Shown here piece after piece: positions 352 through 31,485 of a stretch of DNA of 64,000 nt. The notes beneath the pieces are model-generated. The model had not been told where the DNA came from and made no database searches. It was given only the letters and a program-made list of their open reading frames with translations. The translations under genes and the position numbers were made by a program. The DNA is taken from the IMG/VR virus record IMGVR_UViG_3300045136_000267. One strand, 5' to 3'. Source of the DNA: a virus. Position 1 is the first letter of the stretch. Each line of letters begins with the position of its first letter.

Positions 352-3300
352 ATGCAGACATTAGCTAGGCCTGTTCAAGAACTTGAAGAATTGAATCCTG
401 ATACCTTTAAGTCTGTAGATACATCTCCAACGTTACCTACTATTACTGACATTCCCAAGAATTCTATAGCAGTAGATGACATTCAAGCAATCAGACATAA
501 AATCTTTGATAATGTACTTAAAACATTATCTTCTGCTCCAGCACACGCTTATGGTAATTATGTTCTTAAATTAGAGAATCTTAAATATGCTGACCCTGAT
601 AAGTTTTCTATTCAAGACGAAAGAGATGCAATTATTAAAGGTAATTCTCTTACTAGAAGACTAGTAGGCGATTATGTTCTTATTGATGCCAAGACTGGGA
701 AAGAGATAGCTAGAAGAAAGCAGTTAGTAGCTAGAGTACCTTATCTTACTAGTCATGGATCCTTCATTTTCAATGGAAATGCTTACAGTATTGCCAATCA
801 ACTACGTTTAAAGCCTGGCGTCTTCATACGTCTCCGTGGTGATGGTAATGCAGATACTTTCGTAAATACTGTCAAAGGATTGACTCATCATTATACCCTT
901 GACCCTGAAAAGGGTATATTCTACATGTCCTTTGGTAATGTAAATATTCCACTATTTACCGTTCTAAAAGCACTCAACGTCCCTGATGAAAAGATTCTAA
1001 GTGCTTGGGGTCAGAAACTATATGCTTCTAACGCCGCTGCCGGAGCTAAAGCTAACATTGCTAAATTATTTAAGAACAGATTATCTCCAGAACAGATAAA
1101 TCAAGCTCTTCCTAAACTATTAGAGAGCATGAAGTTAGATCCAACAGCTACCCAGCTAACTATTGGTATTCCTGCTACCCATGTCACTCCAGACGTAATG
1201 CTTGAAGCTACTAAGAAAATGCTAAAAGTATGGAAGGGAGAAGCAGAAGCTGATGAGCGTGATGCTTTACACTTCCAGAAAATAGCAGGAGTAGAACATT
1301 TAATTCCAGAATATGTATTCAGAGCACATCAAGGATTACGTAAGTTCATTCCTAGAGCTGTAAGAAAGAATTTCGATTTAAGCGTTATCCCTAGTAATTA
1401 TTATTGGACAGGCATCTCAGATTTACTTCTCGGTAGTGGCTTAGCCGAGATTTTGGAAGAAATTAATCCCACTGAGACCCTCGATAGACTATACAGAGTT
1501 ACTAAGTTAGGCGCCGGTGGTATTGAACAAGTAGAAGCCGTACCAGAGGAAGCTAGATCTGTACATCAGACCCACATGGGTTTTATAGATCCAGCAGTAA
1601 CAGGTAAGTTAAAGCGAGTAGGCGTAGATTTAAGACTTGCATATCTTACTAGGAGAGATGAGAACGGTAAACTTTATACAGTATTTAAAGATGTAAAGTC
1701 CGGTAAATTCGTATGGCGTTCTCCAGAAGATCTCATTAATGCCGTAGTAGTTTATCCTGGTGAAATGGATAATAAAGATAATTATGTATTGGGATCTAAG
1801 AACGGCAGAATTAGATATTTCAACAGAGAAGAAGTAGATTACGAACTACCTTATGGGGAACAATATTTCAATACAATTACTAATTTTCTACCTGCACAAG
1901 GAACAACCTTCCCCCAACGTATCATGATGGGTCAGCAAATGCATTTGCAGGCCCTTCCATTAATTAATGCTGAAGAACCTCTAGTTCAGGGGAAGCTACC
2001 TAATCAAGATAACTCTTTCCAAAGAGCTGCATATAAATATTACGGTGTAGTTAAAAGTGATGTAGATGGAATAGTAGAATCTGTAAGTCCTAATAGAATA
2101 GTTGTCAGAGACAAAAGATCTAATAAGAAAACTGTATACGAATTATACAATAATTTCCCTTTCAATAGAAAGACGTTCATTCATAACACCCCAGTAGTTA
2201 AAACAGGGGATGAAGTATACAAGAACCAATTATTAGCGACTTCTAATTTCTCCGATAAGAATGGCAATCCCGCTTTCGGATTAAATGCTTACATAGCATT
2301 TTTACCTTATCGTGGTTACAACTATGAAGATGCTTACGTGGTATCTGAATCTTTTGCTAAAAGATTAAACTCTGAACATATGTATCAAGAAACTCTGGAT
2401 ATAGCTCCAAACATAATCACTGGAAAAGATGCTTATAAAGCGGCGTTTCCAGGTAAGTATTCAGAGGAATTTTACAATAACTATGATGAAAATGGATTCT
2501 TAAAACCAGGTAGAAAAGCTATTAAAGGACAACCATTAATTTTAGCTGTAAAATCTGCAGATCCGGGTAGAATAGGAGCAAAAAAGAAGATACTTTCTGA
2601 TGCATCTATTATTTGGGATCATGAAAATCCTGGTGTAGTAATAGATACTCATAAAGGAAGAGACAATCTTTATATCAACATTAAGTCTAATTCTTTAGCA
2701 ATTGAAGGAGACAAGTTAACCGGTAGATTTGGTGACAAGGGTGTAATCGCTAGGATCATTCCTGATAGTGAAATGCCTAGAGATAGTCTAGGCAGACCCT
2801 TTGATTTACTAGTTAATCCTCTAGGACTAGCTACTAGAGGTAATATGGGGCAAATCTATGAGGCTGTTCTAGGTAAAATTGCCGCTAAAAATAAGAAACC
2901 TGTATTTGTTCCAGCCTTCATGAGCGACTATTACGTTTTTGCTGATAATATGTTGAAGGCCAATAGGGTTTCCCCCACAGATACTGTTTATGACCCAAAA
3001 TTTGGCACATATATTCCTAATGTTTTAACTGGATATAAATATGTGATGAAATTGCATCACATGGCAGAATCTAAGTTGCAAGAAAGAGAGACTGCTGAAT
3101 ATACAGCAGAAGACATGCCTGCTAGAGGAGGTAAGACAGGGGCAAAATATATAGGTTTCTTGGAATTGATGGGTATCTTAGGTCACAATGCTTTCAATGT
3201 TATTAGAGATGCCAAGTTTGTTAGAGGACAAAGAAATGACAGATTTTGGCTAGATTTCATGCGTGGTGCTACTCCCACAGTCAATACATCAACATTGGTT

Positions 3301-4755
3301 TATGATAAATTTGTAAACCTATTAAAAGCTGCAGGTATAAATATAGAAAGTAACAACGACACTTTGAATCTTTTCGCCCTTACAAACTCTGATATCGCTA
3401 ACCTGACTGCAGATAGGGTAATTAGAAATCCAAATACTGTTAAAGTATTACGTGATGATGTTAAGCCAATAACAGGCGGTTTATTTGATCCGACTATTAC
3501 TGGAGGTCTAGATGGTAGGCATTGGAGCTATTTTGAATTATCTGAACCATTTCCAAATCCAGTAATGGAAGATGTAATTCGTACATTATTGGATTTAACA
3601 GAGAAAGATTACATTGACATTCTAATAGGAAAGAAAACTCTTGAAGGTTCAAATAAATTAGGGCCAGAAGCCCTTAAGGAAGTCTTATCAGAATTTAATG
3701 TTGATAAAGAACTAGATACAGCTATTCGCAATTACAAAGTAGCTCCTGCTAGCAAAAAAAGTGCTTTGATAAAGAAGATTAGATATCTACGGGCTATAAA
3801 GCAAACTAATCAAAAGCCAGAAGAATGGTTCTGGACGAGAATGCCTATTATTCCACCAATCTTTCGTCCAGTCTCCTTAACTAATAAAGTAATAACGGTA
3901 GCTGATGTTAATGCTTTGTATCAAGATTTGTATGAAGCTAATGAAATATTAAATTCTCAGAAGAAATTCATGGAAAATCCATCAGAAGCTAGACTTGCTG
4001 TCTACAACGGCATGAAGGCTGTAGCAGGAATAGGTGATCCTATTCAAGTTAAACATAAGCAGCAGGGGTTAAGGGGTTTATTACAGCAGATAGTAGGTAC
4101 CAGGTCTAAAACAAGCTATGTAATGCGTAAGCTTATTGGTATAACTACTGACTTGGTAGGTAGAGCTGTAATCATTCCAAATCCTGCCTTGGATATAGAT
4201 CATGTAGGTATTCCCATAGAAATGGCCTGGACTTTATTCAGGCCAGTAATAATAAGAAATCTGACTAAACGCGGACTTTCTCTAGTAGATGCAATAAAAG
4301 CATATAATGATAAATCTAAATATGCAGTAGATGCGTTACTAGAAGAGATAAATAACAGGGTAGTTATAGTAAATAGAGCGCCAGTACTGCATAGATATGG
4401 TGTAATGGCATTTAAGCCAGTTCTTACAAAGAATAAAGTAGTAGAATTCAATCCTCAAATAACGTCAGCTTTTGGAGCAGACTTTGATGGTGATGCTGTT
4501 CAAGTACATCTTCCCATACTTGATGAAGCTCAAAAAGAAGCTAAGATGAAAATGCTACCATCAAAGAATTTATTCTCTTCTGCTAATTTTGGACTGTTAT
4601 ATCCTCCGATTAGAGAGTATGCTTTAGGTTTATGGCTGGCAACAGCTTACGAAGATAAAACTAAAAAACCTGTAAGGTTTAAATCTATTGGCGACCTACT
4701 TAAAGCATATAATAGAGGTGAAATTACAATAAATACGCCAGTAGAAATTGGTTAG
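352..4755 (+). CDS. Phage multi-subunit RNA polymerase: beta fused to the N-terminal (catalytic) half of beta'
   Basis: Beta motifs GYNYEDA, GDKLTGRFGDKG, NPLG..RGN.GQ, KLHHM and the C-terminal FVNLLKAAGINIE. These run directly into beta' motifs KPITGGLF, PIIPPIFRP, GRAVI, NRAPVLHR and the catalytic GADFDGD (4474-4494). Confidence 0.96.
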   Translation: MQTLARPVQELEELNPDTFKSVDTSPTLPTITDIPKNSIAVDDIQAIRHKIFDNVLKTLSSAPAHAYGNYVLKLENLKYADPDKFSIQDERDAIIKGNSLTRRLVGDYVLIDAKTGKEIARRKQLVARVPYLTSHGSFIFNGNAYSIANQLRLKPGVFIRLRGDGNADTFVNTVKGLTHHYTLDPEKGIFYMSFGNVNIPLFTVLKALNVPDEKILSAWGQKLYASNAAAGAKANIAKLFKNRLSPEQINQALPKLLESMKLDPTATQLTIGIPATHVTPDVMLEATKKMLKVWKGEAEADERDALHFQKIAGVEHLIPEYVFRAHQGLRKFIPRAVRKNFDLSVIPSNYYWTGISDLLLGSGLAEILEEINPTETLDRLYRVTKLGAGGIEQVEAVPEEARSVHQTHMGFIDPAVTGKLKRVGVDLRLAYLTRRDENGKLYTVFKDVKSGKFVWRSPEDLINAVVVYPGEMDNKDNYVLGSKNGRIRYFNREEVDYELPYGEQYFNTITNFLPAQGTTFPQRIMMGQQMHLQALPLINAEEPLVQGKLPNQDNSFQRAAYKYYGVVKSDVDGIVESVSPNRIVVRDKRSNKKTVYELYNNFPFNRKTFIHNTPVVKTGDEVYKNQLLATSNFSDKNGNPAFGLNAYIAFLPYRGYNYEDAYVVSESFAKRLNSEHMYQETLDIAPNIITGKDAYKAAFPGKYSEEFYNNYDENGFLKPGRKAIKGQPLILAVKSADPGRIGAKKKILSDASIIWDHENPGVVIDTHKGRDNLYINIKSNSLAIEGDKLTGRFGDKGVIARIIPDSEMPRDSLGRPFDLLVNPLGLATRGNMGQIYEAVLGKIAAKNKKPVFVPAFMSDYYVFADNMLKANRVSPTDTVYDPKFGTYIPNVLTGYKYVMKLHHMAESKLQERETAEYTAEDMPARGGKTGAKYIGFLELMGILGHNAFNVIRDAKFVRGQRNDRFWLDFMRGATPTVNTSTLVYDKFVNLLKAAGINIESNNDTLNLFALTNSDIANLTADRVIRNPNTVKVLRDDVKPITGGLFDPTITGGLDGRHWSYFELSEPFPNPVMEDVIRTLLDLTEKDYIDILIGKKTLEGSNKLGPEALKEVLSEFNVDKELDTAIRNYKVAPASKKSALIKKIRYLRAIKQTNQKPEEWFWTRMPIIPPIFRPVSLTNKVITVADVNALYQDLYEANEILNSQKKFMENPSEARLAVYNGMKAVAGIGDPIQVKHKQQGLRGLLQQIVGTRSKTSYVMRKLIGITTDLVGRAVIIPNPALDIDHVGIPIEMAWTLFRPVIIRNLTKRGLSLVDAIKAYNDKSKYAVDALLEEINNRVVIVNRAPVLHRYGVMAFKPVLTKNKVVEFNPQITSAFGADFDGDAVQVHLPILDEAQKEAKMKMLPSKNLFSSANFGLLYPPIREYALGLWLATAYEDKTKKPVRFKSIGDLLKAYNRGEITINTPVEIG

Positions 4756-4778
4756 TCTTTTTTATTAGGAGAGTTTGA

Positions 4779-5372
4779 ATGAAAGGTTCTCATTTATTTC
4801 AATTAGATCCTAATGCTTTCATGAAGGCTTTAGCTAAATTAGCTTCCGAAAAGAACGCCTTTGTTCCTCCTGGTGGCGGTGCTCCTCCTGGTGCTCCTCC
4901 TGGAGGTATGCCTATGGATCCTGCCATGATGGGTATGGCAGCTCCTCCCGGTGGTGGTGCTACTCCAATGGATCCTGCCATGATGGGTATGGCTCCTCCG
5001 CCTGGAGGTATGCCTATGGATCCATCAATGATGGGTGGCGGGGCTCCTCCTGGTGGAGGCGCTCCTCCTCCGATGGGCGGTGGGCTTCCTCCGGAATTGA
5101 TGCAGTTATTAGCTTCTCCGCCCGGCGGTGCTCCTGAGTCCACTGATAATTCTGGCGCTCCTGGCTCTGAAGTCGGTGAGGAGCAAGGTACCGGTACTTC
5201 TACCAGTACTCTAATGGAAATGAAACCCGAAGAGTTCAAAACCTTAGTGATTGATGCTGTAGAAAAAGGTTTCGCTAATTCTGCAGATTCAATGTTAAGG
5301 GTACTAGAAGATATTAGAGATGCTTTAACTAATAAGGCTGGTACTTCTAGAGGCGAGAACGAGAACCTCTAA
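4779..5372 (+). CDS. Pro/Gly/Met-rich low-complexity protein between the RNAP genes
   Basis: AGGAG RBS, three PMDP(A/S)MMG repeats and several GGAPP repeats; tightly packed with both neighbours. Confidence 0.8.
   Translation: MKGSHLFQLDPNAFMKALAKLASEKNAFVPPGGGAPPGAPPGGMPMDPAMMGMAAPPGGGATPMDPAMMGMAPPPGGMPMDPSMMGGGAPPGGGAPPPMGGGLPPELMQLLASPPGGAPESTDNSGAPGSEVGEEQGTGTSTSTLMEMKPEEFKTLVIDAVEKGFANSADSMLRVLEDIRDALTNKAGTSRGENENL
4870..5140 (+). repeat. Coding repeats (atggatcc..ccatgatgggt x3; gctcctcc(t)ggtgg)
   Basis: Imperfect direct repeats visible in the DNA, with locally high GC. Confidence 0.8.
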
Positions 5373-5379
5373 TTAATTA

Positions 5380-7230
5380 ATGACTACAGCAGGTGCTGTT
5401 TTAATAAATGCAATATTACCAGAGGATATAAAAGTATCTGGTACTTTAGACGTAAAAGAGATAAGGGCTCTTTTGTCTAAAGTAGCTCAGAAGTATCCAG
5501 ATAAATTTCCAGAGATTTCTTTGAAGTTAGGGAACTTGGGTGCCGATTTTGCATATCGGCACCCAAAGTCTTCTTTTTCTTGGGAGGAATTAGCTCCTAC
5601 ATACGAATTAGATAATCTAAGAAAAGATTTATATTCTAAAGTTAGAGAAATAATTTCCGATTCCACTACAGACTGGGATAAAAAGTCTAGTAAAATAATA
5701 GATATAGTATCTAAATATGATGATCTCTTCTTGGAAAAAACCAAAGAGATATTGAAACAGAGAGGTGGGGCTCTTTACGGTCAGTCTTCTTCTGGTACTA
5801 GAGGTAAACCTGTAGATATTAGAAGACTTCTAACGGGTGATATTCTCTACGTAGATCATAAGAATCGACCTATTCCTGTTCCAGTATTACGCGGTTATTC
5901 AATGGGTCTAAGACCAAGCGAATACTGGCTAGCAACTTTCGGCGCCAGAAAAGGATTCGTGACTACGAATCTTGGAACAGCAGATGCTGGGTACCTAAGC
6001 AAACAATTAACTAATGCTGCTCATAGACTTATAGTCACTGCTGTTGATTATAAAGGTAAGGATCCACTACCTATTGGATTACCAGTAGATACTTCAGATC
6101 CTGATAATGCTGGTAGCTTTCTTGCCGCAGATGTAGGCGGCTATAAACGAAATACTTTATTAACTCCAGAGATATTAGCTGATTTGAAAAATAAAGGTTT
6201 TAACCAGATTCTTGTCAGAAGCGTTTTAACCAAAAGACTACCAGGTGGTGGAGTAACTGCTAAAGATGTTGGATTAATGGAAAACGGTAGAATGTTAAGC
6301 CCAGGGGATATGATTGGAATAATTGCTTCTCAATCTCTAGGTGAACCTGTAACACAAATGGTTATTGGGGCTAAACATTCTGGTGGTACTTCTAAGACTA
6401 AGATAGACATTGGTTCTTTGATTCTAGCTTTGCAAGTACCCAAACAATATAGGGGAGCTGTACATACCGACAATGCAGGTACTGTTAAAAACATTACGGA
6501 TGCTTCTGCTGGTGGTAAGATTGTTACCATTGATAATGAACAGTATTACGTACCTCCGCAAGAAGAAGTAAATGTAAAAATTGGTGACTTTGTAGAAGCT
6601 GGTGATCCTATTAGTTCTGGAATTCCAAATATTTCTAAGTTAGTACAGCATAAAGGCATTGGAGAAGGTAGAAGGAAATATGTAGAATTATTAAGAGATA
6701 TTTATAAGCAAACAGGTTTTAATATAATAAGAAGAAACTTTGAAATATTAGTTTCTGGATTAATAGATCATGTAAAATTAACTCAACCCATAGGGAATTA
6801 CATTCCTGGAGATGTGGTATCTTACACGTGGTTAGAATCTAAGTGGACACCACGGGAAGGTAGTAAATGGATATCAGTAGATAAAGCTGCAGGAAAATAT
6901 CTAGAATTGCCAGTTTTACATTATACTATCGGAACAGCTATTGCACCATCTATGGTGAAAATATTAAAACAATTTAATATTGACAATGTTTTAGTACATG
7001 ACGATCCTCCGCCATTTGAACCTTACATGGTTCCGGCTGCTAAAGTTATTGATTATGATCCAGATTGGTTAGTACGATTTTTAGGTGGTACCTTTGGACA
7101 GAAGAGAAGCTTAATAAAAGCTGTTAGTGAGGGACATAAGAGTGAGATTTTCTCTACTTCTTATGTACCTCCTTTCGTTACCGGGAAAGCATTTGCCACG
7201 GAGTGGCCTAAAAAGATTCTGCAAAGTTGA
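5380..7230 (+). CDS. Phage RNA polymerase beta' C-terminal half
   Basis: Starts TTAG..LIN.ILP; SGTRG; bridge helix GARKGFVTTNLGTADAGYLSKQL; trigger loop SQSLGEPVTQM...HSGG; GD.V.AGD; RRNFEILV. Confidence 0.94.
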   Translation: MTTAGAVLINAILPEDIKVSGTLDVKEIRALLSKVAQKYPDKFPEISLKLGNLGADFAYRHPKSSFSWEELAPTYELDNLRKDLYSKVREIISDSTTDWDKKSSKIIDIVSKYDDLFLEKTKEILKQRGGALYGQSSSGTRGKPVDIRRLLTGDILYVDHKNRPIPVPVLRGYSMGLRPSEYWLATFGARKGFVTTNLGTADAGYLSKQLTNAAHRLIVTAVDYKGKDPLPIGLPVDTSDPDNAGSFLAADVGGYKRNTLLTPEILADLKNKGFNQILVRSVLTKRLPGGGVTAKDVGLMENGRMLSPGDMIGIIASQSLGEPVTQMVIGAKHSGGTSKTKIDIGSLILALQVPKQYRGAVHTDNAGTVKNITDASAGGKIVTIDNEQYYVPPQEEVNVKIGDFVEAGDPISSGIPNISKLVQHKGIGEGRRKYVELLRDIYKQTGFNIIRRNFEILVSGLIDHVKLTQPIGNYIPGDVVSYTWLESKWTPREGSKWISVDKAAGKYLELPVLHYTIGTAIAPSMVKILKQFNIDNVLVHDDPPPFEPYMVPAAKVIDYDPDWLVRFLGGTFGQKRSLIKAVSEGHKSEIFSTSYVPPFVTGKAFATEWPKKILQS

Positions 7231-7250
7231 TGCAAATGAGTTTTTGAATT

Positions 7251-9587
7251 ATGACTTCTAGCTTAAGTACTAGTTTTTCTGTCTTAAGAAAATTACCTGA
7301 AAAGAGGTTTCTGGGTAATTATAAATTTGCAGCCGCAGAGGGGGATGAAGGTAATTATGAAGCTGCTTTGAGCAACATTGCTCATGCTTATATACAAGAC
7401 GTAGCCCCAGATCTACTTCCTTATGAATTGGGATTTCAGTTAGTTGAAAAGAACAGAGACGCTAATAGAGCCCTTGGTGTATTTGGTTTTAAGATAAACA
7501 ACTTAGTTTGTTATATTCCTATTTTCTTTATTGATGGAGACATTTTTGGCCTAGATCTTCTCTTTGTTCATAATTTTAAGCGCTGGATTCCTCTTGAGAG
7601 AGAATTTGTAAAGAAATTAATTAATTCTTCTAAAGCAGCTGTAGGTAGTCCAGTAGATGCTCTATCTAAATCGTTATTATCTGAATTACCTAATTTAATG
7701 CAATTTAAGCCTTATACGCTCAAGTGGGCTATGGACCTACCTGAATGGCTAAGACCTTTCTCTGTAGAACTAGTAAATAACAAAAGAGCACCTAAAGTAG
7801 AGAGAAAAGAGAGATTATTAGATTTACTTTCTAAATCCGCTTCTGCCGCAAGGAAATTTAGTGAATTTTTACTTGAGCATCCTATTTACATTAAATCTTT
7901 TGACAAAGCCTATGGTTTGAATCGTATTAAAGAAGCTATTAAAACAGCGGCTGATACTGACAAAAAACCAGTAATTCCTTCATTGGAGGAATCTGGTAAA
8001 CCTGCTGATGTAGAGATTTATACTAATATCCATTCAGACGCTATTCATAAACTTACTGAGACAGAATTGGCCACCCTTAGAAGACAAGGATATTATGTAA
8101 AGGATAAGAGAAATAAAACTACTATTATAAAACCGTATGAATTTAACAATAAGAAAGCACAGACGGTAGATAAAGCAGGTTTTTATCATCTATTACTTGC
8201 CGATCTATCTAGAGTGTGTGCTTTTGTAGTACCTATCGTAGCTGAATTTGATGAAGATGTTTATTCGTCTTCTAATGAGAACGAAAGAAAGCGTCGTGAT
8301 AAGCATATTAAGCATTCTTATTTAGTAGTTCCTATTTATAGAATGGCAGAAGATGGTGAAATCTTAAAGACTTATTCTGGTGACCTTGGCTTTGTCGCTT
8401 ATTCTGATAGCTTAGTGGCTATTAATACTCCAAAAGACTATGATAAACATTCTATTAATGACTTTAAGTCATTAAGAAATATCGAAGGTAATAAAGATTA
8501 TTACAGCAGATATATAGTATTTACAGCAAATAATGCTACTCCTCCTATTAGGCAGTTAAAGAAATTAGATAAACAACATAGAGGTAGGACACTATTCTCT
8601 GTAGACTTAGACTGTGGTTGTGTATCTGAGGGACCAATCGAGCCATATCCTACCCATCTTGTATTAGATCCTGTTCTAACTAATGAAATTAAGTTCCATA
8701 AGAGATTTGATAATAATGCTAAATGGAATGAAAAGTCTATAAGATTACATGTTCCTGTCAATGCTAAATATGTGAAACTAATAAACGATTATGTAGACTC
8801 TGATTCTGAAGAGGCAGAAATAAATAGTATTAGGCATGGTCTTGTTAGTTCTAATGACATTTTACGTACTCTTCTTAAGAGTGCAGATGGTGAATTAAAG
8901 GCATTTGAAATATCTAACGATGAGGTAATCATTAATAACAAACCCTTGAATAAGAAAGCTGCCTTTCAACATCTAATTCTAGACTATGGCTTGAGTGAAG
9001 CTGACGCTAAAGAAGTATTGAAGAAAGTTGCATATAAGAAGGAAGCTAGATACGTCTATAAAAAAGCAGATGATATGAATTTTCCAAATGCTCCTCCGCC
9101 TCCAGGAGGACCTGCATTGGAAAAGATGCAGCCTTATCTAGGTTCGTTTGGACAAGCTCCTGCAACTAGTCCTCTTTACTCTATTCTAGTAAATCAAATT
9201 CCAGGCCTCCCATTGCCTGATAATCCTTATTCTGATCTCAAAGGTACTATTGATTTTGATAAGATTGTCAATCAAGCGATTCAATCCGGGGAAAAAGAAA
9301 TTCTGGACACTAGCGTATTTACTGGTTTGATCCATGCTACTGATGAGAGAGAATTAATAGATAAATATTTTGATGACATAGTAGATGGTCTAAATGCTAT
9401 TGGACAACTATTATTTAATATTTACATGCATAAAGACAAAATTGAAGAAGTATATGGTAAAGAATCTTATAAAGAGATAGAAAATCTAGTTAGAAATAAT
9501 TTCAGAAATTTAGGAAAGATGGTAGTAAGGTTATTCAATAGACCTAATACTTCTAACTTCAAACCATTAACTTCTTTAGAGGTGTAA
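7251..9587 (+). CDS. Large hypothetical protein, probably virion/head-associated
   Basis: 778-aa ORF at the start of the head region with many K-x-A motifs. Confidence 0.55.
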   Translation: MTSSLSTSFSVLRKLPEKRFLGNYKFAAAEGDEGNYEAALSNIAHAYIQDVAPDLLPYELGFQLVEKNRDANRALGVFGFKINNLVCYIPIFFIDGDIFGLDLLFVHNFKRWIPLEREFVKKLINSSKAAVGSPVDALSKSLLSELPNLMQFKPYTLKWAMDLPEWLRPFSVELVNNKRAPKVERKERLLDLLSKSASAARKFSEFLLEHPIYIKSFDKAYGLNRIKEAIKTAADTDKKPVIPSLEESGKPADVEIYTNIHSDAIHKLTETELATLRRQGYYVKDKRNKTTIIKPYEFNNKKAQTVDKAGFYHLLLADLSRVCAFVVPIVAEFDEDVYSSSNENERKRRDKHIKHSYLVVPIYRMAEDGEILKTYSGDLGFVAYSDSLVAINTPKDYDKHSINDFKSLRNIEGNKDYYSRYIVFTANNATPPIRQLKKLDKQHRGRTLFSVDLDCGCVSEGPIEPYPTHLVLDPVLTNEIKFHKRFDNNAKWNEKSIRLHVPVNAKYVKLINDYVDSDSEEAEINSIRHGLVSSNDILRTLLKSADGELKAFEISNDEVIINNKPLNKKAAFQHLILDYGLSEADAKEVLKKVAYKKEARYVYKKADDMNFPNAPPPPGGPALEKMQPYLGSFGQAPATSPLYSILVNQIPGLPLPDNPYSDLKGTIDFDKIVNQAIQSGEKEILDTSVFTGLIHATDERELIDKYFDDIVDGLNAIGQLLFNIYMHKDKIEEVYGKESYKEIENLVRNNFRNLGKMVVRLFNRPNTSNFKPLTSLEV

Positions 9588-9590
9588 TAA

Positions 9591-10046
9591 ATGTTTACAT
9601 ATGAACGTACAATAGGCGATTTACAGATACCTGATAATGAAACGGAATATGGTTTTGCTATTTCCGTGCCGTTCTACGGAAAAGTTAAGAAATTAGTAGT
9701 AAAACAAACGGGTGGTACTTCGGTACCATTTACAGTTAATCTCTATAGCGCTAGAGTAGTAAAAACGGCTAACAATCCAACTCCAGCTATTAACCTCAGT
9801 GTTACACCAAAAGAATTATACAAAATAATTCCGACTCAAGCGCAGGTATCTGCTGGTGGAACCTATACTCTAATAACTGACAATGATGGTTATGCTTATA
9901 TGAATATTGATGTTTCTCCTATTACTTCAGCACCGTCTATGGCAAATCCAACACGCAATATTTATGTAGCTATTACTCTTGGATCCGCTGCGCCAAATGT
10001 AACAACGTGGTCTGTTGGTATTGCTCTTTGCACTGAAGGTAATTGA
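9591..10046 (+). CDS. Hypothetical beta-rich structural protein
   Basis: GAGGT RBS; Thr/Val-rich composition. Confidence 0.5.
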   Translation: MFTYERTIGDLQIPDNETEYGFAISVPFYGKVKKLVVKQTGGTSVPFTVNLYSARVVKTANNPTPAINLSVTPKELYKIIPTQAQVSAGGTYTLITDNDGYAYMNIDVSPITSAPSMANPTRNIYVAITLGSAAPNVTTWSVGIALCTEGN

Positions 10047-10972
10047 TGATTCAGGATAAATTGAATCTAAATATAGACAAAACACTATTAAAGTTATCCA
10101 AGGATCATCCATCTCGTCCTGTAAACTGGAGATGGCTATTAGCGCTCAGGGTAGTAGACAATAACTCTTTAGAAATACTAGTTGACAAAGAAGATAAATA
10201 TTTATCCATTGCCATAGAACTAGCTTCTAGAATAAAGCAAGCTAATTCATTGCAAGAATATTTAGCTATAAAAAGAGATCTACCCCATGCTTTCAGAGCA
10301 TGGGAACTCTATGAAGAAGATTCTAATGCTTTTTCTAAAGAAATAGAGGCAAGAATATTAGCAAGAGAACAGATACTCACTATTGCTAGCAGATTTAATC
10401 TGGAACCACAAGTAGTAAAAACATATGAAGCTTTATTTTTTAATGTTTTAGATAGAATAGAGAATAAATCTTATATCTCCTCTATAATATATAATACTTA
10501 TCTTGACGACGCTTTTGATACTTATAAATTGTGGAAACACGTAGCTTACTTTGGATCTCCAGAAGCTTTGGAATTCATTATTAATAAAAGTCCGTCAGAA
10601 GATCTTTTAAATTCAGCGGATTCACTATCTAATATAGACGGTATTTCCTATGCTAAGCAGTTATTAACTGTCGAATTATTAAAGAACAAAACTAGTGATA
10701 TGGATACTTTTTCTAATATTCTTGGTCAGTTTGTAGAGATTGCTAAGCTTTCTAAAGATTTGGATGTCGGGGACGTTAATAAAGATATTACAGAAAGAAT
10801 TCATGATGTTATTAAGAAGATCAATTGGACTGTAGGTAGTCGTTTTGTTAAATTAGAAGAATTGCCAAACGTTTCTGGTTTAAGTATATTAGATTGCGAT
10901 ACTAATAATAAAGAGAGTTCGATTTATGGCACAGGTGCCGATAATAACCGAGAGAACAGTAGAGAAACTTAG
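10046..10972 (+). CDS. Hypothetical protein
   Basis: Long ORF whose start overlaps the upstream stop. Confidence 0.6.
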   Translation: MIQDKLNLNIDKTLLKLSKDHPSRPVNWRWLLALRVVDNNSLEILVDKEDKYLSIAIELASRIKQANSLQEYLAIKRDLPHAFRAWELYEEDSNAFSKEIEARILAREQILTIASRFNLEPQVVKTYEALFFNVLDRIENKSYISSIIYNTYLDDAFDTYKLWKHVAYFGSPEALEFIINKSPSEDLLNSADSLSNIDGISYAKQLLTVELLKNKTSDMDTFSNILGQFVEIAKLSKDLDVGDVNKDITERIHDVIKKINWTVGSRFVKLEELPNVSGLSILDCDTNNKESSIYGTGADNNRENSRET

Positions 10973-12224
10973 TAAATATCTTGATAGTGTCAATAATCTA
11001 GTAGATCAAGGTCATTCTCCAACTGAGGCTTTGAAGAAGGTAGCCGAGGAGAATAATCTATCCCCAGAATACATTCGTTCAGTTGGAATTGCTTACAATA
11101 GTGGACTTACGAACTATTATATTCATCATGAGAAGAGAGCTACTGCATTATATGACACAGAACTTTGTGAGCCTGAGAAAGTTATAAAAGAGCTTTTTAC
11201 TCCTAGAAGTAAGAAGGCAGAAGACGTAGATCCTTTCTATCTATATTCTCCTGCCTTTCATGACATCGGTAGATATCGTCCGCCCGAGCCAGTAGTTAAA
11301 GCTGCTGAGTTCAGATCTGTAGAATCTATCTCTAAAGAGATAAATACGCTTATTCAATACAAACGTAAAGAAAAAGAGATTTTAGAATCTGAACTTAAAA
11401 TGATATATGAATTAGTAGATGCTGATCTGAGAAAGATAGCAAGCTACTACGAACGTGATGGTGCTATTGATCCTCATATAGTAAATGAAACTTGCAAGAC
11501 TTTGAATATAGTGTCAGGACCAATATTAAAGGCAGCAGAAGTTCCTGATAATAAACAGTATTATTCTAAGAATACTACCTTCTCTAATAAATTGGAACCT
11601 TATAGATATATTATAAGAATAAATGAGTTCACTAAGAAAGCTAATATAATTAGAGATAAAATCCAAGTATTAGATAATGAATTAGCTATTATTGACAAGA
11701 AATTAGAAGGATTTAAAAAAAAACTACCTAACCAGTCAGAAAACGAATTAAATTCAGATAAACAAACAAAAACGGCACAAGCAACACCCCCTTCATCACA
11801 AATAAAACCTCCTTCATTAGAAGAAACATATTCTAAATTTGAAGAATCTCGTAAAAAAATATTTGATTTCGCGGCTTCAACTTTCGATCAAGAATCTATA
11901 TCCTATCCTGGTAGTTTTACTCCAGTAGATAAAGCTCAACCAGAGCATAGTAAAGATATATTAAAAGCCAATGCAAATGTAGTTAAAGTTATTTTAACTA
12001 ATTTAATGTTAAACGATCCTATAATCTCAAAATATGAACCAGAAAAAGTACTAGATGCTTATTCAAAATTAGCTGCTCTAGCCCCAGCCGCCATGACTCG
12101 CGAAGTTATCATGGTTCCTTTACTACAGAAGATATTAGAAACTGGTACATTAGATCCGCTAGATGTAGCTAATCTTATTAAGTTTAACCTCCAGATTGCA
12201 AAGCACATTGAGAACGTATCTTGA
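10926..12224 (+). CDS. Hypothetical coiled-coil head-associated protein
   Basis: 432 aa with K-x-A motifs (EKRA, SKKA, VKAA, RKIA, TKTA). Confidence 0.55.
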   Translation: MAQVPIITERTVEKLSKYLDSVNNLVDQGHSPTEALKKVAEENNLSPEYIRSVGIAYNSGLTNYYIHHEKRATALYDTELCEPEKVIKELFTPRSKKAEDVDPFYLYSPAFHDIGRYRPPEPVVKAAEFRSVESISKEINTLIQYKRKEKEILESELKMIYELVDADLRKIASYYERDGAIDPHIVNETCKTLNIVSGPILKAAEVPDNKQYYSKNTTFSNKLEPYRYIIRINEFTKKANIIRDKIQVLDNELAIIDKKLEGFKKKLPNQSENELNSDKQTKTAQATPPSSQIKPPSLEETYSKFEESRKKIFDFAASTFDQESISYPGSFTPVDKAQPEHSKDILKANANVVKVILTNLMLNDPIISKYEPEKVLDAYSKLAALAPAAMTREVIMVPLLQKILETGTLDPLDVANLIKFNLQIAKHIENVS

Positions 12225-12851: not shown

Positions 12852-13418
12852 ATGACTCAGCTAACTAATGAAGGTTTAGCTTTTGTATTACAATCGTATT
12901 CTAAAGAACTTGAATCTGCTCAAAAGAAGGTTAAGAAATTAGCTTCTGCAAAAAAGAATAATATTAAGACAGCTGGTAGCAGATTTAGTATTAATGAATT
13001 AGAAGGCGTAAGTCCTGGTGGTCTAGGTGATTTGCTATTAAATCCCCTAGTTTTAGGTGGTCTTATAGCTGCACTTTATGGTGCCGGTAAGCACGGTCTG
13101 ATTCCTGGATTAGATACTGTAAGAGAGAAAATTAATCCTGTGACAGAGGCTGCCACGGGTGCTTTTAGTAATCCAGGGGCTACAGCAAAGAGTCTCAAGA
13201 ATGTACTTGCTTCCGCCTTATCTGATTATGGACCTGCTGCTGGGGTAGGTGCTCTTGCTTCTATTTTGGGTCAGATCCTTAAAGGTGATGGTATCAGTCT
13301 GTTAAGCGCAGGCGGTACTGGTTTAGTTACTGGTGGTGGTCTAGCTGTAATTGATGCGTTAGCTAAAGCCTTAGGTACTAATACGCAAGGCAGTGGATCA
13401 GGCGGCGGTAGGGCTTGA
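12852..13418 (+). CDS. Gly/Ala-rich putative internal virion (ejection) protein
   Basis: AAGGAG RBS; IKTAG motif followed by GxxxG hydrophobic segments; no Cys. Confidence 0.5.
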   Translation: MTQLTNEGLAFVLQSYSKELESAQKKVKKLASAKKNNIKTAGSRFSINELEGVSPGGLGDLLLNPLVLGGLIAALYGAGKHGLIPGLDTVREKINPVTEAATGAFSNPGATAKSLKNVLASALSDYGPAAGVGALASILGQILKGDGISLLSAGGTGLVTGGGLAVIDALAKALGTNTQGSGSGGGRA

Positions 13419-13541
13419 GCACCTACCATTGTCATTAAATAACCATTGATGCCGTTGCTAATAAAAGCAAAAAGCATTGCTTAATATCTTATTTATTAGA
13501 ATATAAGGATAACAGCATTGTTTTAAAAATGAACTTTAAAC

Positions 13542-14015
13542 ATGAACATTAACGATGTTAACCCATACACAGAAGAATTTCTCAAGCAAGCTGAATTAGA
13601 TGTAGGAAAGTTATTATCGGATCCTCATGTTTTATATCCTTCTATCGGCATAGCTATCTCTCTAGCTACTAACACTAATCCTTTGATCCCCGCTCTTATA
13701 GGTCTAGCCGCTGCAGAATATCAAGATCCAAAGATACTAAATGCTATTAACCCAGAAAGTTACGCTAAAGCAAAAATCAAAGAAGAAGTTAGTAAGGCTA
13801 TATGGCATCCTTTATCCGTAGCAGGCGCAACAGCCGCCGGCACGTACGCAGGCTCAAGAGTTGCAAATGCTATTGCTACTCAAGGCCCTGGCACAGCTTT
13901 AAAGAATATGGCTGCTAGTTCAGGCAAATTTATTGGACCAGCTGCAGGTGCTACTGCTGCTCTCTCAATCCCAGTTCTATTAAACTTTTTAGCAGATAAA
14001 ATAATTGGTAAATAG
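13542..14015 (+). CDS. Ala/Gly-rich putative internal virion protein
   Basis: FLKQAE motif and hydrophobic small-residue helices; no Cys. Confidence 0.5.
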   Translation: MNINDVNPYTEEFLKQAELDVGKLLSDPHVLYPSIGIAISLATNTNPLIPALIGLAAAEYQDPKILNAINPESYAKAKIKEEVSKAIWHPLSVAGATAAGTYAGSRVANAIATQGPGTALKNMAASSGKFIGPAAGATAALSIPVLLNFLADKIIGK

Positions 14016-14031
14016 AACTGGTAACTACGAC

Positions 14032-15126
14032 ATGAAACCAGAATTAGTATTTCCAGTAGTTCTTGCGTCTTATTCTGAAGATAAGATAGCTAGAGAATTA
14101 TTAAATAATGATTCTATGATAAAAATAGCTGGCCCGGGTGATTTTTTAAGAAATGTTCTTAAATGGTTAAGATTTCGAAGAGGAACATCAGTAATGCCTC
14201 CAAGCGCAAGATCAACAGCAGCTCCAAAAGCAGCTCCAAAAGCAGCTCCAACAGCAGCACAAAAAAATCTACCTGATATTAAACCCACAGATGTGCCTGG
14301 TGCAGCTAAAGTCGAGCAATCTGCTGAGAGAGGCTTAAATGTACTTAAAGAAATTATACAAACTAATAAGCTTGATATAGGAGAAGTGGAAAAGGCACTA
14401 CCACTAGTATCAGAGTTTGTGGAAAACGAAAAAAATATCGTTAAACTACCTAGGTCTCCACAATATAAAAAGCAGTTAGTTGAACTCCTCAAGAGACAGT
14501 CTGAACTTAGTAGTAAACTGCAAGATATAGGATTTACTTCTGATAATTTAAAAAAGATTAAGAGCCTCGATCCGGATGAGTTAAAACAAGTTGTAGCAAA
14601 GGGAATACAAGAAGCAAAAACTGATCAAGCAGCAAAAACTAATCAACCAGCAGATACTGCTCAACTAGCAAATGCTGCTCAAGCAACAAAAACCGATCAA
14701 CCACTTGATACGACTCAAAATAGTAATAAAGAGTCAACCTGGATAAGCGATTTGATAAATAGTTTAATTATAGGTGGTTCTGTACTAGGCTCAGGACACC
14801 AAATATCACAATCTCTGACAAAGGGTGAAAATACTAATAGACAGATTTTAAGAGGCTTAGAACAAAACGCTAGAGGACCAAGCGCTAGTTTAACGGCCCC
14901 TACAGATCAAAGAACGGAATCAGATCAAGGAGATGGTCCACCGAAACAACAAATACCTCCATTACTAGCTGCAGGCTTAGGTGCTTTACTAATTGGTGGT
15001 TTAGCACAACGTAGATATGGTAACGAGGAAGGCCGATACGATTCATTAGGAGATTCATTATTGCCAATGCTAGCAGGTGGCTTAGTAGGATATGGTGGTG
15101 CTGAAGCGATTAATAGGTATGTTTAA
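14032..15126 (+). CDS. Putative internal virion protein with C-terminal glycine-zipper helices
   Basis: IKIAG motif, AAPK repeats, C-terminal LLAAGLGALLIGGL and LAGGLVGYGG; no Cys. Confidence 0.5.
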   Translation: MKPELVFPVVLASYSEDKIARELLNNDSMIKIAGPGDFLRNVLKWLRFRRGTSVMPPSARSTAAPKAAPKAAPTAAQKNLPDIKPTDVPGAAKVEQSAERGLNVLKEIIQTNKLDIGEVEKALPLVSEFVENEKNIVKLPRSPQYKKQLVELLKRQSELSSKLQDIGFTSDNLKKIKSLDPDELKQVVAKGIQEAKTDQAAKTNQPADTAQLANAAQATKTDQPLDTTQNSNKESTWISDLINSLIIGGSVLGSGHQISQSLTKGENTNRQILRGLEQNARGPSASLTAPTDQRTESDQGDGPPKQQIPPLLAAGLGALLIGGLAQRRYGNEEGRYDSLGDSLLPMLAGGLVGYGGAEAINRYV

Positions 15127-16543: not shown

Positions 16544-17763
16544 TGAACAACGATCATGTTTTTAACAGAATCATTAAATTACTGGATGATATCGCATCCG
16601 TAAAAGAGGCCTCGGATACTAATATGGCTGACAAGAGTTCTGTCAGCAAAACTAAGCCTACGGCTGATCCGCTTGCTAGCGTTGGTTCTTTAGACCTGCC
16701 GGATCCGGACGACGCTATTTCTTATGCTTCTGTCGGGCAAGCTGGTGCTTCTCCAAATCCTGATGCTACCTTTGTAGGAGAAGATCCTAAGAACGAGAAG
16801 CCTTCTAAAACTGTAGGCAGACTAGACTTTCCTTTGGAAAAGTATAAGAAACATGCTTCTGCAGTTTCAACAGAAGAGTTATTGAGAGATGCTGTCAGCC
16901 TTGGCAACTCTATTCTTTTTGACATTATACAAGAAGAGGAACAGCCTGTAAAACAAGCTCATGTTCCTGCACAAGCTCAAAATACTAATGAAAAGAAAGA
17001 AGCTGTAGTAGATACCTCTAAGTTTGAGCATGTAAAGACTGCTGAAGACGTAGTTCAATTGTCTTCGGGCGTGCTTGATGCTGTTAAGAAGCAAGCTGAA
17101 TTTCACGCTCAGTTAGTAGGTGAATATTTATACGGAAACTTGCTATCTAAAAGCATTGTAAAGGCTGCTGAAGAGGAGAAAGTTGACGAAGAGACAGAAA
17201 AAGAAGAGGATTCAGAGCCAGCCGATGATACAGATAACCCAGCTCCGAACCTTCAAGAAGATAAAGAACCTGTAGATGCTTTAGTTGAAGCAGAGGAAAA
17301 AAAAAATAGCAACTCCACTGGAGATTCTGAGGGGTCTGAGGAGGAAACCGAAAAAAGATTGAAGGAGGAGATAGCTGCTGCTGCAGCGGAAAATGCTGCC
17401 CAAGAAGCTGCTGAAAAGACAGTTGAAGAAGGGTCTGCTCCTGATACTGATTCTTTAGATCTTGAAGAAGCTCTTGGTGCGCTTAATGAAATGAATTCTG
17501 CGGAAGGAAGTAATGAGAAAGAAATCCTTGAAATGCTAGCAACAGCTTTGAGTCAGATTGCTGGCGAGCAAGGACTTCCTCAGTTAGAAGGATTGGGAGA
17601 AGGAGGTGCTAAGTTAGCTTCGGCAATTAAGAAAGCTTCTGCTGAAGGTAAACTTAAGCCATTTAAGCCCAATACATTAGCTAAGAAATTAGCATTAGAT
17701 TACATGAAATCTTATGTATCCGAATTACTGACTAGAAGTACTAGAAAGAGAGTAAAGGTATAA
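16540..17763 (+). CDS. Putative capsid scaffold protein
   Basis: Acidic, Glu/Ala-rich, between protease and capsid genes; about 9 K-x-A motifs. Confidence 0.55.
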   Translation: MMNNDHVFNRIIKLLDDIASVKEASDTNMADKSSVSKTKPTADPLASVGSLDLPDPDDAISYASVGQAGASPNPDATFVGEDPKNEKPSKTVGRLDFPLEKYKKHASAVSTEELLRDAVSLGNSILFDIIQEEEQPVKQAHVPAQAQNTNEKKEAVVDTSKFEHVKTAEDVVQLSSGVLDAVKKQAEFHAQLVGEYLYGNLLSKSIVKAAEEEKVDEETEKEEDSEPADDTDNPAPNLQEDKEPVDALVEAEEKKNSNSTGDSEGSEEETEKRLKEEIAAAAAENAAQEAAEKTVEEGSAPDTDSLDLEEALGALNEMNSAEGSNEKEILEMLATALSQIAGEQGLPQLEGLGEGGAKLASAIKKASAEGKLKPFKPNTLAKKLALDYMKSYVSELLTRSTRKRVKV

Positions 17764-28976: not shown

Positions 28977-30722
28977 ATGCCTGTACCTTATGTTGCATTA
29001 GGCGTTAGACTATTTGCTTTTGTCCAGCATCCTGATTATGGATGGGCTCCTCTCTCTGTAACATCTTTCCAATGTGATTATACTATAAATCAGATTCCTC
29101 AGGCTACAATTGAAGCTCCTCTAGGAGTAACGCGCGATTATCTTATTAGTACAGCTCATGTACTTAATGGTAATTTATTTAGAATTCCAATAGTAGTAAT
29201 AGCCTCTGTAGATTACGGTTTTGGTTCTCAGGGTACCTTAGGTCTATTACTAGATAGTCCTTTAGCTTATCCTAAAGTCTTTTTACTATTTTCTGGTTAT
29301 GTAACTAAAGTAACAGTAATAAGAAGAGAGAAGGGTGTTTTTGCCAGTCTCTCTTGTGTACATTGGTTGTCTCAGTTGGACTTCTCTTCTGGCATCTCTT
29401 CAGTTATACATCCAAATAATCCAGCCCATTTGACATTTCCAGCTTTCTACAAAACAGGAGCTGGGGGTTTTCTTGGTGGAGGAGCCAGAGGATTTTCTCC
29501 TTTAGAAGTAGTACAAGGATTATTAACAGTTAAGGAACTAAAAGATGATCCGTGGGAATATGGAATCTATAGATGGCTGGCTTTTTTAGCAAAGACAGAC
29601 GCGGCATATTTCGCTCAACCATATGTTTTAAATGCTTTAAATTCAATTATCTACAAGTTTTATGTAATAGAACCTCCATATACTAGACCAGAATTACGCC
29701 CTGCTCTAAGACCAAGAACCGATTATCCTGATGCAGAAAGGATACTTGCTAATATTGCAGACTCTTTAGCTGGTAGGACTACGAACCATACAAAGAATGA
29801 TTTGTTGAATATCACGTCTTTAGCACAAAATACAATCTGGTCTAAATTGGTTAACGAATTATCTCCTGAATTACAATTCGTAATATGTCCATTGCCTGGG
29901 TATGCTCGGGTTATACCATATAATCCTGTATATGCTCCAGTTAAATTTCCTATAGATAGTTTCTCGTTTGATAGTAACTGGTATGTACCTTTTAAATACT
30001 CAAAGGTTGTCTCTTTTACAATAAGAACAGACCAAATTTTCTCTACTGTAGAAACAAGTGCAGCACAGATTCCTGTTAAAGTATTTGGTTTATATGGTAA
30101 TTATGCTCCATTAGCTGGAAGTAATTTAGAAGTAGGTAATTCTTTACAATCATTTATTGGTGGCTATTATGCTGCCCCAGAGATAACAGCAGGACAAATA
30201 GTTTTAGAGAAAGCTCCATTTTTCTTATCTATGTCTTCTGTACCATCTGTATATCTAGGTCAAATGATATCATTCAATAGAGCTACTATGAGAAACTTAC
30301 CTGCTGCGATACAGACTAATAGGGAAATAGCTTTAGCGGGACTAGCAGAGCAGACAATATTAGATAGAATGGCTAAATTTTTGTATGCTAAGAAATTGAC
30401 AGAACATAGGCAGCTAGAAATAGCGGGACCATTACGTTTTGATATTTGTCCTGGTAGTACAATTGCTGTAGAAGCAGTAGGTTCAAATTATTTGCCTGGT
30501 TCTTTTGCAACAGATACAGCTGTTATAGGATATGTATATAGTGTAGGATATGATATAGATTTAAATAGACAGAATACACCGGCTAGAACTATTTTTAGAC
30601 TAACGAATTTGAGGAATATATTTGAAAATTGTTACACCTTTAGTTTTACAGTTAGACGCCATCCTCTGTATAAATATTCATTTATAGGCGGTACAATGGC
30701 AAATCAATTGTATTATGGCTGA
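28977..30722 (+). CDS. Putative baseplate hub protein
   Basis: N-terminal VTSF.C.Y.IN.IP.ATI, LFSGYV and C-terminal IAGPLRFDICPGSTI patterns of hub (gpD/gp27-type) proteins. Confidence 0.5.
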   Translation: MPVPYVALGVRLFAFVQHPDYGWAPLSVTSFQCDYTINQIPQATIEAPLGVTRDYLISTAHVLNGNLFRIPIVVIASVDYGFGSQGTLGLLLDSPLAYPKVFLLFSGYVTKVTVIRREKGVFASLSCVHWLSQLDFSSGISSVIHPNNPAHLTFPAFYKTGAGGFLGGGARGFSPLEVVQGLLTVKELKDDPWEYGIYRWLAFLAKTDAAYFAQPYVLNALNSIIYKFYVIEPPYTRPELRPALRPRTDYPDAERILANIADSLAGRTTNHTKNDLLNITSLAQNTIWSKLVNELSPELQFVICPLPGYARVIPYNPVYAPVKFPIDSFSFDSNWYVPFKYSKVVSFTIRTDQIFSTVETSAAQIPVKVFGLYGNYAPLAGSNLEVGNSLQSFIGGYYAAPEITAGQIVLEKAPFFLSMSSVPSVYLGQMISFNRATMRNLPAAIQTNREIALAGLAEQTILDRMAKFLYAKKLTEHRQLEIAGPLRFDICPGSTIAVEAVGSNYLPGSFATDTAVIGYVYSVGYDIDLNRQNTPARTIFRLTNLRNIFENCYTFSFTVRRHPLYKYSFIGGTMANQLYYG

Positions 30723-31485
30723 GTTAAAAACAGAAGACAGATTGAAATTAGCTTGGAAACAGTGGTATGAAAACCCAGAAAACAAGCAGCTATCAACTAA
30801 ATTAATGAATGAATTTACACCTATTATTAATTCATTCATTACTACTTATCTAGGTGCTAGTTATGTAAATGACCCTCTTATTCAGGGACGGGCTAAAACA
30901 GTCCTTTTTGAGTCTCTAGGTAAGTATGATCCAACCAAGGGTAGTCTTACTACCTTTGCATGGACTAATCTTCAAAGATTGCAGAGATATATGTCAAAAC
31001 ATCAGAATGTCTTGCATATGTCTGAGCAATCTATTATGTTATCTAAGGCCTTAAATGAAGCTACAGAAAGACTTAGAGAAAGTCTTGGGAGAGAACCATC
31101 TGATCAAGAATTAGCTGATAATCTAGGAATATCTATTAAAAGAATAGAAACAATTCGTAAAAGGCAGCAAGTTGGATATGAGGGTTCTTTTGAAGAAGCT
31201 ACTGGAGAAGATTCAGCCTCTTTACCCGCAGCTAAGAAAGCTAAAGATTTACAGTATCTCTATAATGTGTATTATGATGCCTTGGAAGATAATAAAGATA
31301 AATATATACTAGAATCGACGTTTGGTTTGCACGGAAAACCTAAAAAGACTATATCAGAAATTGCTAAGGATTTAAATATATCTAGAAACAATGTGAATCA
31401 AAGATTAAACAAAATAAGAGAAGATTTTAAAGTATTAACACAGACTGCCACTTCAGGTTCTAGTATAGATTTAGAACTAGAATAA
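30715..31485 (+). CDS. Sigma-70 family RNA polymerase sigma factor (FliA/SigB-like size)
   Basis: Region 2 KYDPTKGSLTTFA, region 3 LGREPSDQELADNLGIS and region 4 HTH KTISEIAKDLNISRNNVNQ. Confidence 0.9.
   Translation: MAELKTEDRLKLAWKQWYENPENKQLSTKLMNEFTPIINSFITTYLGASYVNDPLIQGRAKTVLFESLGKYDPTKGSLTTFAWTNLQRLQRYMSKHQNVLHMSEQSIMLSKALNEATERLRESLGREPSDQELADNLGISIKRIETIRKRQQVGYEGSFEEATGEDSASLPAAKKAKDLQYLYNVYYDALEDNKDKYILESTFGLHGKPKKTISEIAKDLNISRNNVNQRLNKIREDFKVLTQTATSGSSIDLELE

Follow-up and report, generated by a model that had tools for sequence, protein, structure and literature searches.

A phage RNA polymerase with beta fused to beta' and beta' divided before the TTxG motif

We describe a bacterial-type, multisubunit RNA polymerase (RNAP) encoded at positions 352–7230 of a 64,000-nt stretch of viral DNA (hereafter the window), which is part of the IMG/VR virus record IMGVR_UViG_3300045136_000267 (contig of 86,868 b, estimated to be 44% complete). 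A complete beta subunit is joined to the N-terminal part of beta' in one polypeptide (chain 1), and the remainder of beta', starting right at the TTxG motif, is produced from a separate gene (chain 2). The cut in beta' is real and common to a whole phage clade, being neither cellular nor unique to this genome. We conclude that the window genome is that of a large tailed phage, and that its polymerase locus is an ordinary, typical member of a large, conserved and essentially undescribed clade. Taken as a whole, our reading, which we consider likely, is that a two-chain phage core arose through an old fusion followed by one fission, works with its own sigma factor and is probably packaged into the virion.

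A fused first chain and a beta' divided in two

The first 10 kb of the window form a run of co-oriented open reading frames (ORFs), in which the polymerase features are placed as follows:

352..4755, + strand: chain 1 gene (P0001), complete beta and the N-terminal part of beta', a single ORF of 1467 aa
3334..3375, + strand: beta-beta' fusion junction of chain 1, from a MAFFT alignment; also present in the single-chain relative P0245
3490..3530, + strand: deletion site of the beta' N-terminal Zn-binding domain (...ITGGLDG/RHWSY...), a gap in the MAFFT alignment
4477..4494, + strand: catalytic ADFDGD of the beta' double-psi barrel, chain 1 residues 1376-1381, from a family alignment
5380..7230, + strand: chain 2 gene (P0003), C-terminal part of beta' from M-TTAG, 616 aa; Pfam Rpb1_5 with E 5.5e-29
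5926..6033 (approximate), + strand: bridge-helix region of chain 2 (...FGARKGFVTTNLGTADAGYLSKQL...), by comparison with E. coli beta' ~769-805 and 8i23_D
6304..6399 (approximate), + strand: trigger-loop region of chain 2 (...GIIASQSLGEPVTQM...KHSGG), by comparison with PDB beta' chains

Pfam assigns residues 367-918 of chain 1 to beta (Rpb2_3 and Rpb2_6) and residues 1120-1399 to beta' (Rpb1_1 and Rpb1_2), with the beta double-psi barrel (PF00562, Rpb2 domain 6) covering residues 570-918 at an E of 9.4e-52. In agreement with this order, PDB beta chains match residues ~110-958 and PDB beta' chains residues ~1080-1466. The junction itself was placed by a MAFFT alignment of both chains of the window, of three relatives (L005, L006 and L007) and of Vibrio phage D69 with E. 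coli RpoB+RpoC. Here, GINIE (residues 995-999) stands opposite the final residues of E. coli beta and is followed by a linker of five residues, SNNDT, after which LNLFALTNSDI stands opposite E. coli beta' ~18-30; given a spacing of five residues between the two motifs, the tether is very short. Further downstream, a clean gap of 32 columns opposite E. coli beta' C70-C88 is present in all five phage sequences, marking the loss of the N-terminal Zn-binding domain. The clamp-helix segment of beta', which binds sigma, is kept in chain 1.

The columns of the catalytic motif (A1376-D1381, opposite E. coli NADFDGD) are invariant in a 14-sequence family alignment. Counted from DFDGD at residues 1377-1381, chain 1 continues for another 86 aa and stops at residue 1467, equivalent to E. 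coli beta' 568. The M-TTAG start of chain 2 lies opposite TTVGR at E. coli beta' 572, and PDB beta' chains of several bacteria match chain 2 from its residue 2 onward, the bridge helix and trigger loop included. As a result, both double-psi barrels are found on chain 1, and the bridge helix and trigger loop on chain 2. The break falls in the same alignment column in the window, L005, L006, L007 and D69. These results agree with the original prediction from the letters alone, in which beta ran within a few residues into beta', the chain ended about 87 aa past DFDGD, the rest of beta' restarted at TTAG in a separate gene (the ORF at 5380-7230), and both barrels shared one chain with the bridge helix and trigger loop on the other; Pfam, PDB matches and the alignment concur on this last point.

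Versions of the two chains at ≥90% identity were found on different JGI, ENA and Logan contigs (five full-length copies of 1467 aa and four of 616 aa), one of these contigs, 164.6 kb in length, carrying identical proteins. A protein search returned at least 829 homologs. The best 120 of them all combine Rpb2_6 with Rpb1_2, and most are 1443-1502 aa in length, on contigs of up to 227 kb; the longer ones among these 120 bear intein or LAGLIDADG domains (Pfam Intein_splicing and LAGLIDADG). The spacing between the chain 1 gene and the gene for the C-terminal part of beta' (beta'C) varies, with one intervening gene in the window, two each in L005, L006 and D69, seven in L007 and nine in the cultured Salmonella phage Arash, where 7 of the 9 are on the opposite strand; across eight relatives the number is 1-9. 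Relatives are on contigs of 120-240 kb, and in the gene maps the beta'C gene encodes 606-629 aa. The window thus shows the two-chain sizes of the Arash type, namely a fused ORF of ~1450-1530 aa and a separate beta'C of ~605-650 aa. Because ORFs of the same length occur in separate assemblies and the layout recurs in distant relatives, the break cannot be explained by chance or mis-assembly.

Two further genes belong to the same run:

4779..5372, + strand: intervening gene (P0002), Pro/Gly/Met-rich with a helical C-terminus, 197 aa
7251..9587, + strand: conserved downstream neighbour (P0004), 778 aa, in the same operon-like run

The 197-aa ORF between the two polymerase genes, on which the original prediction was silent, is preceded by an AGGAGA Shine-Dalgarno sequence 7 nt upstream. 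L005 encodes a homolog at the equivalent place (37% identity, E 8e-24), and a weaker match is found in L006; Pfam and PHROG families gave no hit. Chain 2 starts 7 nt past the P0002 stop codon, with no obvious Shine-Dalgarno sequence. Being co-oriented and almost abutting, P0001, P0002 and P0003 are probably co-transcribed; promoter-like and terminator-like sites in a scan of the window were not in excess over shuffles. The chain 2 coding sequence contains, at 5536-5566 (+), a GC-rich inverted repeat with arms of 12 bp and a loop of 7 nt, after which comes a T-rich tail. Homologs of the 778-aa protein are encoded directly after beta'C in L007 and L012, and similar-sized genes take that place in L005 and L006; Pfam, PHROG and Atlas gave no lead to its function.

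Sigma factor, missing parts and delivery in the virion

At some distance from the core genes the window encodes a candidate initiation factor:

30715..31485, + strand: sigma70-family factor, 256 aa, Cys-free, with regions 2-4

Its Sigma70_r3 (E 1.9e-10) and Sigma70_r4 (E 1e-6) matches are both above the Pfam cut-off, it matches regions 2-4 of SigA/SigB in the PDB (E ~1e-7), and it is 27% identical to the Arash sigma factor gp10 (E 9e-16). We suggest that this factor probably initiates for the phage core rather than for the host RNAP, so that promoter recognition would depend on the phage's own sigma.

No alpha gene was recognised, either by PF01000 in the window contig (44% complete) or by PF01000 and PF01193 in the complete genomes of Arash and D69. 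Each of these two genomes has one Rpb1_2 and one Rpb2_6 match, that is, a single polymerase set. Chain 1, chain 2 and the sigma-like protein contain no cysteine at all, against an average of 1.17% in the other ORFs of the window (24 expected in the 2083 aa of the chains). The enzyme would therefore lack an alpha subunit, the beta' Zn finger and cysteine, its two products would reassemble non-covalently into one active centre, and the covalent beta-beta' tether could plausibly stand in for the alpha dimer as an assembly platform.

Fifteen + strand ORFs of ≥100 aa in the window are Cys-free, both chains and the sigma-like protein among them, and this trait may mark proteins that travel in the virion. 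They lie within the stretches 2-349, 352-7230, 12852-15126, 16540-18164, 18829-19755, 20659-21243, 27668-28246, 30715-31485, 31945-32298 and 34384-34830.

Virion mass spectrometry of Arash yielded 3516 spectra for the fused chain gp206, the most of any protein, 1210 for the beta'C chain gp216 and 467 for sigma gp10 (PMC10585845). Normalised to lengths of 1525, 606 and 234 aa, this corresponds to 2.3, 2.0 and 2.0 spectra per residue, values compatible with roughly equimolar packaging of core and sigma in Arash. By analogy, the window core and sigma are probably carried in the virion and delivered together with the DNA, where they would start early transcription. Another ORF of the window, at 15143-16543, resembles the Arash structural protein gp222 (E 9e-28).

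A more far-reaching proposal would see here a minimal holoenzyme of two chains and sigma, free of alpha, zinc and cysteine, carried in the capsid and passed through the tail into the host, with the tether replacing alpha and the cut at TTxG kept by selection. On that proposal the cut would be no neutral accident and might ease unfolding, ejection and refolding, or an ordered assembly of the cargo. We regard it as tentative and, on balance, doubtful.

It is rather unlikely that the polymerase is not virion cargo and is made after infection for middle and late genes, with the host enzyme, perhaps redirected by sigma, reading the early ones. Host RNAP is commonly redirected by phage sigma factors (PMC7824862), packaging in the window phage is argued by analogy, the neighbours of its polymerase genes gave no structural annotation, and the Arash authors concede that abundant proteins may be contaminants (PMC10585845). 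However, the Arash fused chain is the most abundant virion protein by spectra, its core and sigma are near-equal once normalised for length, both Arash and D69 have only one polymerase set, and core, sigma and several neighbouring ORFs of the window are Cys-free. We therefore retain packaging of core and sigma as the probable case.

Upstream of the polymerase genes, the contig that contains the window (L092) carries at 2060-4354 (-), ~1.9-4.2 kb upstream of the window start, a gene for a 764-aa protein with LigD phosphoesterase, ATP-dependent ligase and OB domains. It lies between an ORF of 578 aa and the polymerase genes, and the same gene is found upstream of the polymerase in L005 and L006. 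The window also encodes, at 48439-51375 (+), a 978-aa family A DNA polymerase; it has a 3'-5' exonuclease domain, and its N-terminus weakly matches the uracil-DNA-glycosylase superfamily.

One fusion, one fission and other accounts of the break

The sister group of the two-chain enzymes consists of phage polymerases of ~2050 aa in which beta' is continuous. In one of them, P0245 (L017, ORF 5908-12084, on a 174-kb contig), a continuous beta::beta' of 2058 aa is 30% identical to chain 1 and 29% identical to chain 2. It runs unbroken through ...KTTYGR..., shares the junction and the Zn-finger deletion of chain 1, and keeps the cysteines of the second Zn site. A 2392-aa version with an insert of ~345 aa is encoded by L019. 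When P0245:1300-2058 was used as query in an exhaustive HMMER search, 1859 representatives were obtained at E ≤ 1e-30. Among the best 150 of these, most are 2020-2110 aa in length with a single matched stretch in the C-terminal third, and are therefore full single-chain fusions. Many longer representatives show several matched stretches, and both of the two that were checked bear intein or LAGLIDADG inserts. An intein at the TTxG site of single-chain relatives, suspected at one point from the boundaries of HMMER stretches (query 173-180), was discarded after BLAST and Pfam put the inserts elsewhere.

In a maximum-likelihood (ML) tree, built by a quick LG+G4 search from concatenated beta and beta' sequences (31 rows, seven of them bacteria; 2019 columns), the fused enzymes fall into one clade with SH-aLRT support of 100, apart from the seven bacteria. 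Within it, the split clade (8 rows, including the window, Arash and D69) and the single-chain clade (15 rows) are reciprocal sisters (98/98), and Cobetia phage Carin-5, whose enzyme is unfused, is a long-branch sister of the whole fused clade. As beta' is unsplit in all outgroups, parsimony gives one fusion, then one fission. What this implies is one old fusion in the ancestor of a very large family of mostly single-chain ~2050-aa enzymes, followed by one break before TTxG in the ancestor of the clade that holds the window phage, Arash and D69. Judging by the same junction in the ~2050-aa sister clade, the fusion is older than the split.

The fission was probably near-neutral, occurring in a family in which inteins and homing endonucleases have repeatedly entered and cut the polymerase genes. 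Fission driven by a mobile element is plausible but unproven. Another cut is seen in L090 (6487-11989), in which beta is divided at about chain 1 residues 790-808 into two genes of 1156 and 662 aa. The conserved beta motif around this site (GDK...GDKG) is a hot spot, being where the insert of ~345 aa in L019 (5884-13062) and the L090 cut are both located. In L089 (4056-18246, on a 239-kb contig) the fused gene is broken close to where beta ends. A 547-aa ORF without a known family separates the pieces, and beta'C is part of an ORF of 1656 aa that includes ~380 inserted residues and is much extended at its C-terminus. The fused gene also matches Vibrio phages D181 and D148, in two parts that span ~0.9 kb more than the match in D69 and overlie an annotated homing endonuclease.

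Inteins are common in this polymerase family, and the Thr after the break is a permitted +1 nucleophile, so a split intein could be imagined to rejoin the two beta' pieces after translation and leave a mature single-chain enzyme. This is very improbable, as neither an N-intein tail of ~100 aa nor a C-intein leader of ~35 aa is present. In the alignment with E. coli, chain 1 has no residues beyond beta' 568 and chain 2 starts one residue before TTxG, only its Met preceding TTAG, and there is therefore no intein-sized extension at either new terminus. Pfam likewise found no intein family in P0001 or P0003.

Assembly error, a frameshift or decay of a single-chain gene into a pseudogene are excluded as causes of the break. 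The existence of single-chain relatives of ~2050 aa does make a broken copy conceivable. However, the gap contains an intact gene, P0002 (197 aa), that is conserved and has a Shine-Dalgarno sequence of its own, the ATG of chain 2 sits right at the homologous residue, and ORFs of 1467 and 616 aa recur across separate assemblies. The break column is the same in relatives down to 25-31% identity and with up to 9 genes between the two parts, and both Arash chains were seen by mass spectrometry (PMC10585845). An assembly artefact at the split, which would have refuted the original prediction, is thus contradicted both by the same-length ORFs in separate assemblies and by the common break column of the five aligned sequences.

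We give next to no credence to a cellular origin of the genes as a bacterial or archaeal rpoBC variant. Homologs have been deposited in metagenome-assembled genomes (MAGs) named Nitrososphaerota, Aquaspirillum, Thermoguttaceae and others. However, the family members recovered in a scan of species-representative genomes are on contigs of phage size (46-183 kb) binned to MAGs of unrelated phyla, so that the names given to the hosts are spread widely over the taxonomy; the contig of the window is listed as a virus in IMG/VR, and cultured phages carry the same genes. Matches in candidate phyla radiation (CPR) genomes that spanned beta and beta' were taken up as possible cellular fusions and rejected, turning out to be adjacent, ordinary and separate rpoB (1060 aa) and rpoC (1233 aa) genes. 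Placement in a cellular clade with the same layout was likewise tested, and the ML tree sets the fused enzymes outside the seven sampled bacteria.

The original prediction had spoken of an independently evolved fusion plus split. This holds as far as separation from cellular cases is concerned: the break is ~65 residues upstream of the cyanobacterial one, the clade is apart from the seven bacteria, and the CPR rpoB and rpoC are ordinary, separate genes. It fails for an arrangement private to this genome, as a large clade of phages, Arash and D69 among them, has conserved the layout, and the fusion is common to the ~2050-aa sister clade.

A number of points weigh against the scheme of fusion, fission, own sigma and packaging. 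The tree is a quick one with only seven bacteria, many rows of odd composition and a long branch for Carin-5. Because the split and full-length clades are sisters, the direction of change (fission versus re-fusion) hangs on outgroup parsimony, and BLAST and Pfam analysis of the relatives' inserts detected no mobile element right at TTxG. The pairing of sigma with the phage core is drawn from homology. Packaging is shown in Arash only, whose chains are 31% and 26% identical to those of the window phage, which is uncultivated; abundant infection proteins can contaminate virion preparations, as the Arash authors point out (PMC10585845). Ten neighbours of the window polymerase genes have no structural annotation or function from PHROG or Pfam, and the upstream 578-aa ORF has no detectable similarity to the Arash portal.

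Taking these points into account, we still favour a two-chain phage core derived by one fusion and one fission. In the usual description, a multisubunit RNAP requires an alpha dimer as well as two large subunits on separate chains. Hundreds of phages use a natural enzyme for which no alpha gene is found, in which the Zn finger is absent and the large subunits are covalently tethered, and which in the split clade is divided again, at a position where no cellular lineage divides it. With sister single-chain and two-chain clades and a cultured Salmonella phage at hand, RNAP assembly, permissive split sites and delivery through the tail become testable. The family also offers a compact, cysteine-free polymerase of bacterial type, which may suit structural work.

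Comparison with known polymerases

A two-chain layout like that of the window is present in Arash (gp206 and gp216) and in phages D69, D148 and D181, with a beta::beta'N of ~1525 aa and a beta'C of ~606-610 aa. In D69 the break column and the Zn-finger deletion are identical to the window's, and in Arash the sigma gp10 is homologous to its sigma-like ORF. At the sequence level these enzymes are distant, with only 31% and 25-26% identity between the chains of the window and those of Arash and D69, and D69 has 6 Cys whereas the window chains have none. The Arash paper annotates the proteins simply as beta and beta' and does not remark on the layout (PMC10585845). The ~2050-aa single-chain phage enzymes share the window's junction and Zn-finger deletion, and no alpha was recognised for them either; unlike the window's, their beta' is continuous. 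None of this single-chain form was found among the cultured phages of the phage collection.

In Helicobacter and Wolbachia, too, a single ORF runs from the end of beta into the start of beta'. Those enzymes are cellular, have full-length beta' in one chain, use alpha and omega, and retain the Zn finger. In contrast, the window beta' is cut after chain 1 residue 1467, no alpha was found and the Zn finger is deleted. The phage fusion thus appears to be independent of the Helicobacter and Wolbachia ones, as supported by the junction features and the phage context, with both bacterial enzymes absent from the tree.

In cyanobacteria and plastids, beta' (gamma/RpoC1 + RpoC2) is also divided after the catalytic double-psi barrel, but these lineages encode beta on its own and possess alpha and omega. 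Chain 1 residue 1461 lies opposite residue 552 of 624 in 8syi_D, and the match to 8h3v_E stops at its residue 554 of 625, so that the gamma chains still have 71-72 residues left and the phage break is therefore ~65 residues upstream of the gamma/beta' break. This position rests on the coordinates of chain 1 against gamma, because a PDB search with P0245:1080-1640 did not extend the gamma alignments, leaving them short of the gamma C-terminus. The first 125 aa of chain 2 gave only chance matches to the PDB with phmmer, gamma being not directly alignable to chain 2.

Enzymes of the phiKZ/AR9 type are phage-encoded bacterial-type cores without alpha, with a virion-packaged version and a beta' split after the double-psi barrel (PMC7598289). 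They have beta and beta' both fragmented, two enzyme sets and no sigma (PMC7598289, PMC7824862). Unlike them, the window has beta whole and fused and a sigma70-like factor, and Arash and D69 have a single set.

Like the window's, the phage RNAPs of mReC, Carin-5 and Rhizobium phage RHph_Y65 are readily aligned with bacterial beta/beta'. The mReC enzymes consist of distinct beta (900-1487 aa) and beta' (887-1391 aa) proteins (Weinheimer & Aylward 2020, Suppl. Data 2), and with these genes separate and unsplit the window family cannot be the published mReC clade. Carin-5 and RHph_Y65 likewise encode an undivided beta and an undivided beta' in different genes. One mReC contig, 3300000243_SA_S2_NOR18_50mDRAFT_1000001 (PMC7481178 Supplementary Data 1), has four polymerase-like genes (_40 and _76 beta-like, _47 with Rpb1_5, _50 with Rpb1_2), which may represent two sets or a cut layout. 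The crAss-like and YonO-type single-chain RNAPs are too divergent for beta/beta' hidden Markov models (PMC7481178), unlike the window chains, which give strong Pfam and PDB matches.

PHROGs v4 has no fused family, and chain 1 matches its beta-like and beta'-like families separately; we found no description of the fused-then-cut layout in the literature. With regard to its parts, the window enzyme is a variant on known types, bringing together a fused RpoBC, a split beta' and a phage multisubunit RNAP.

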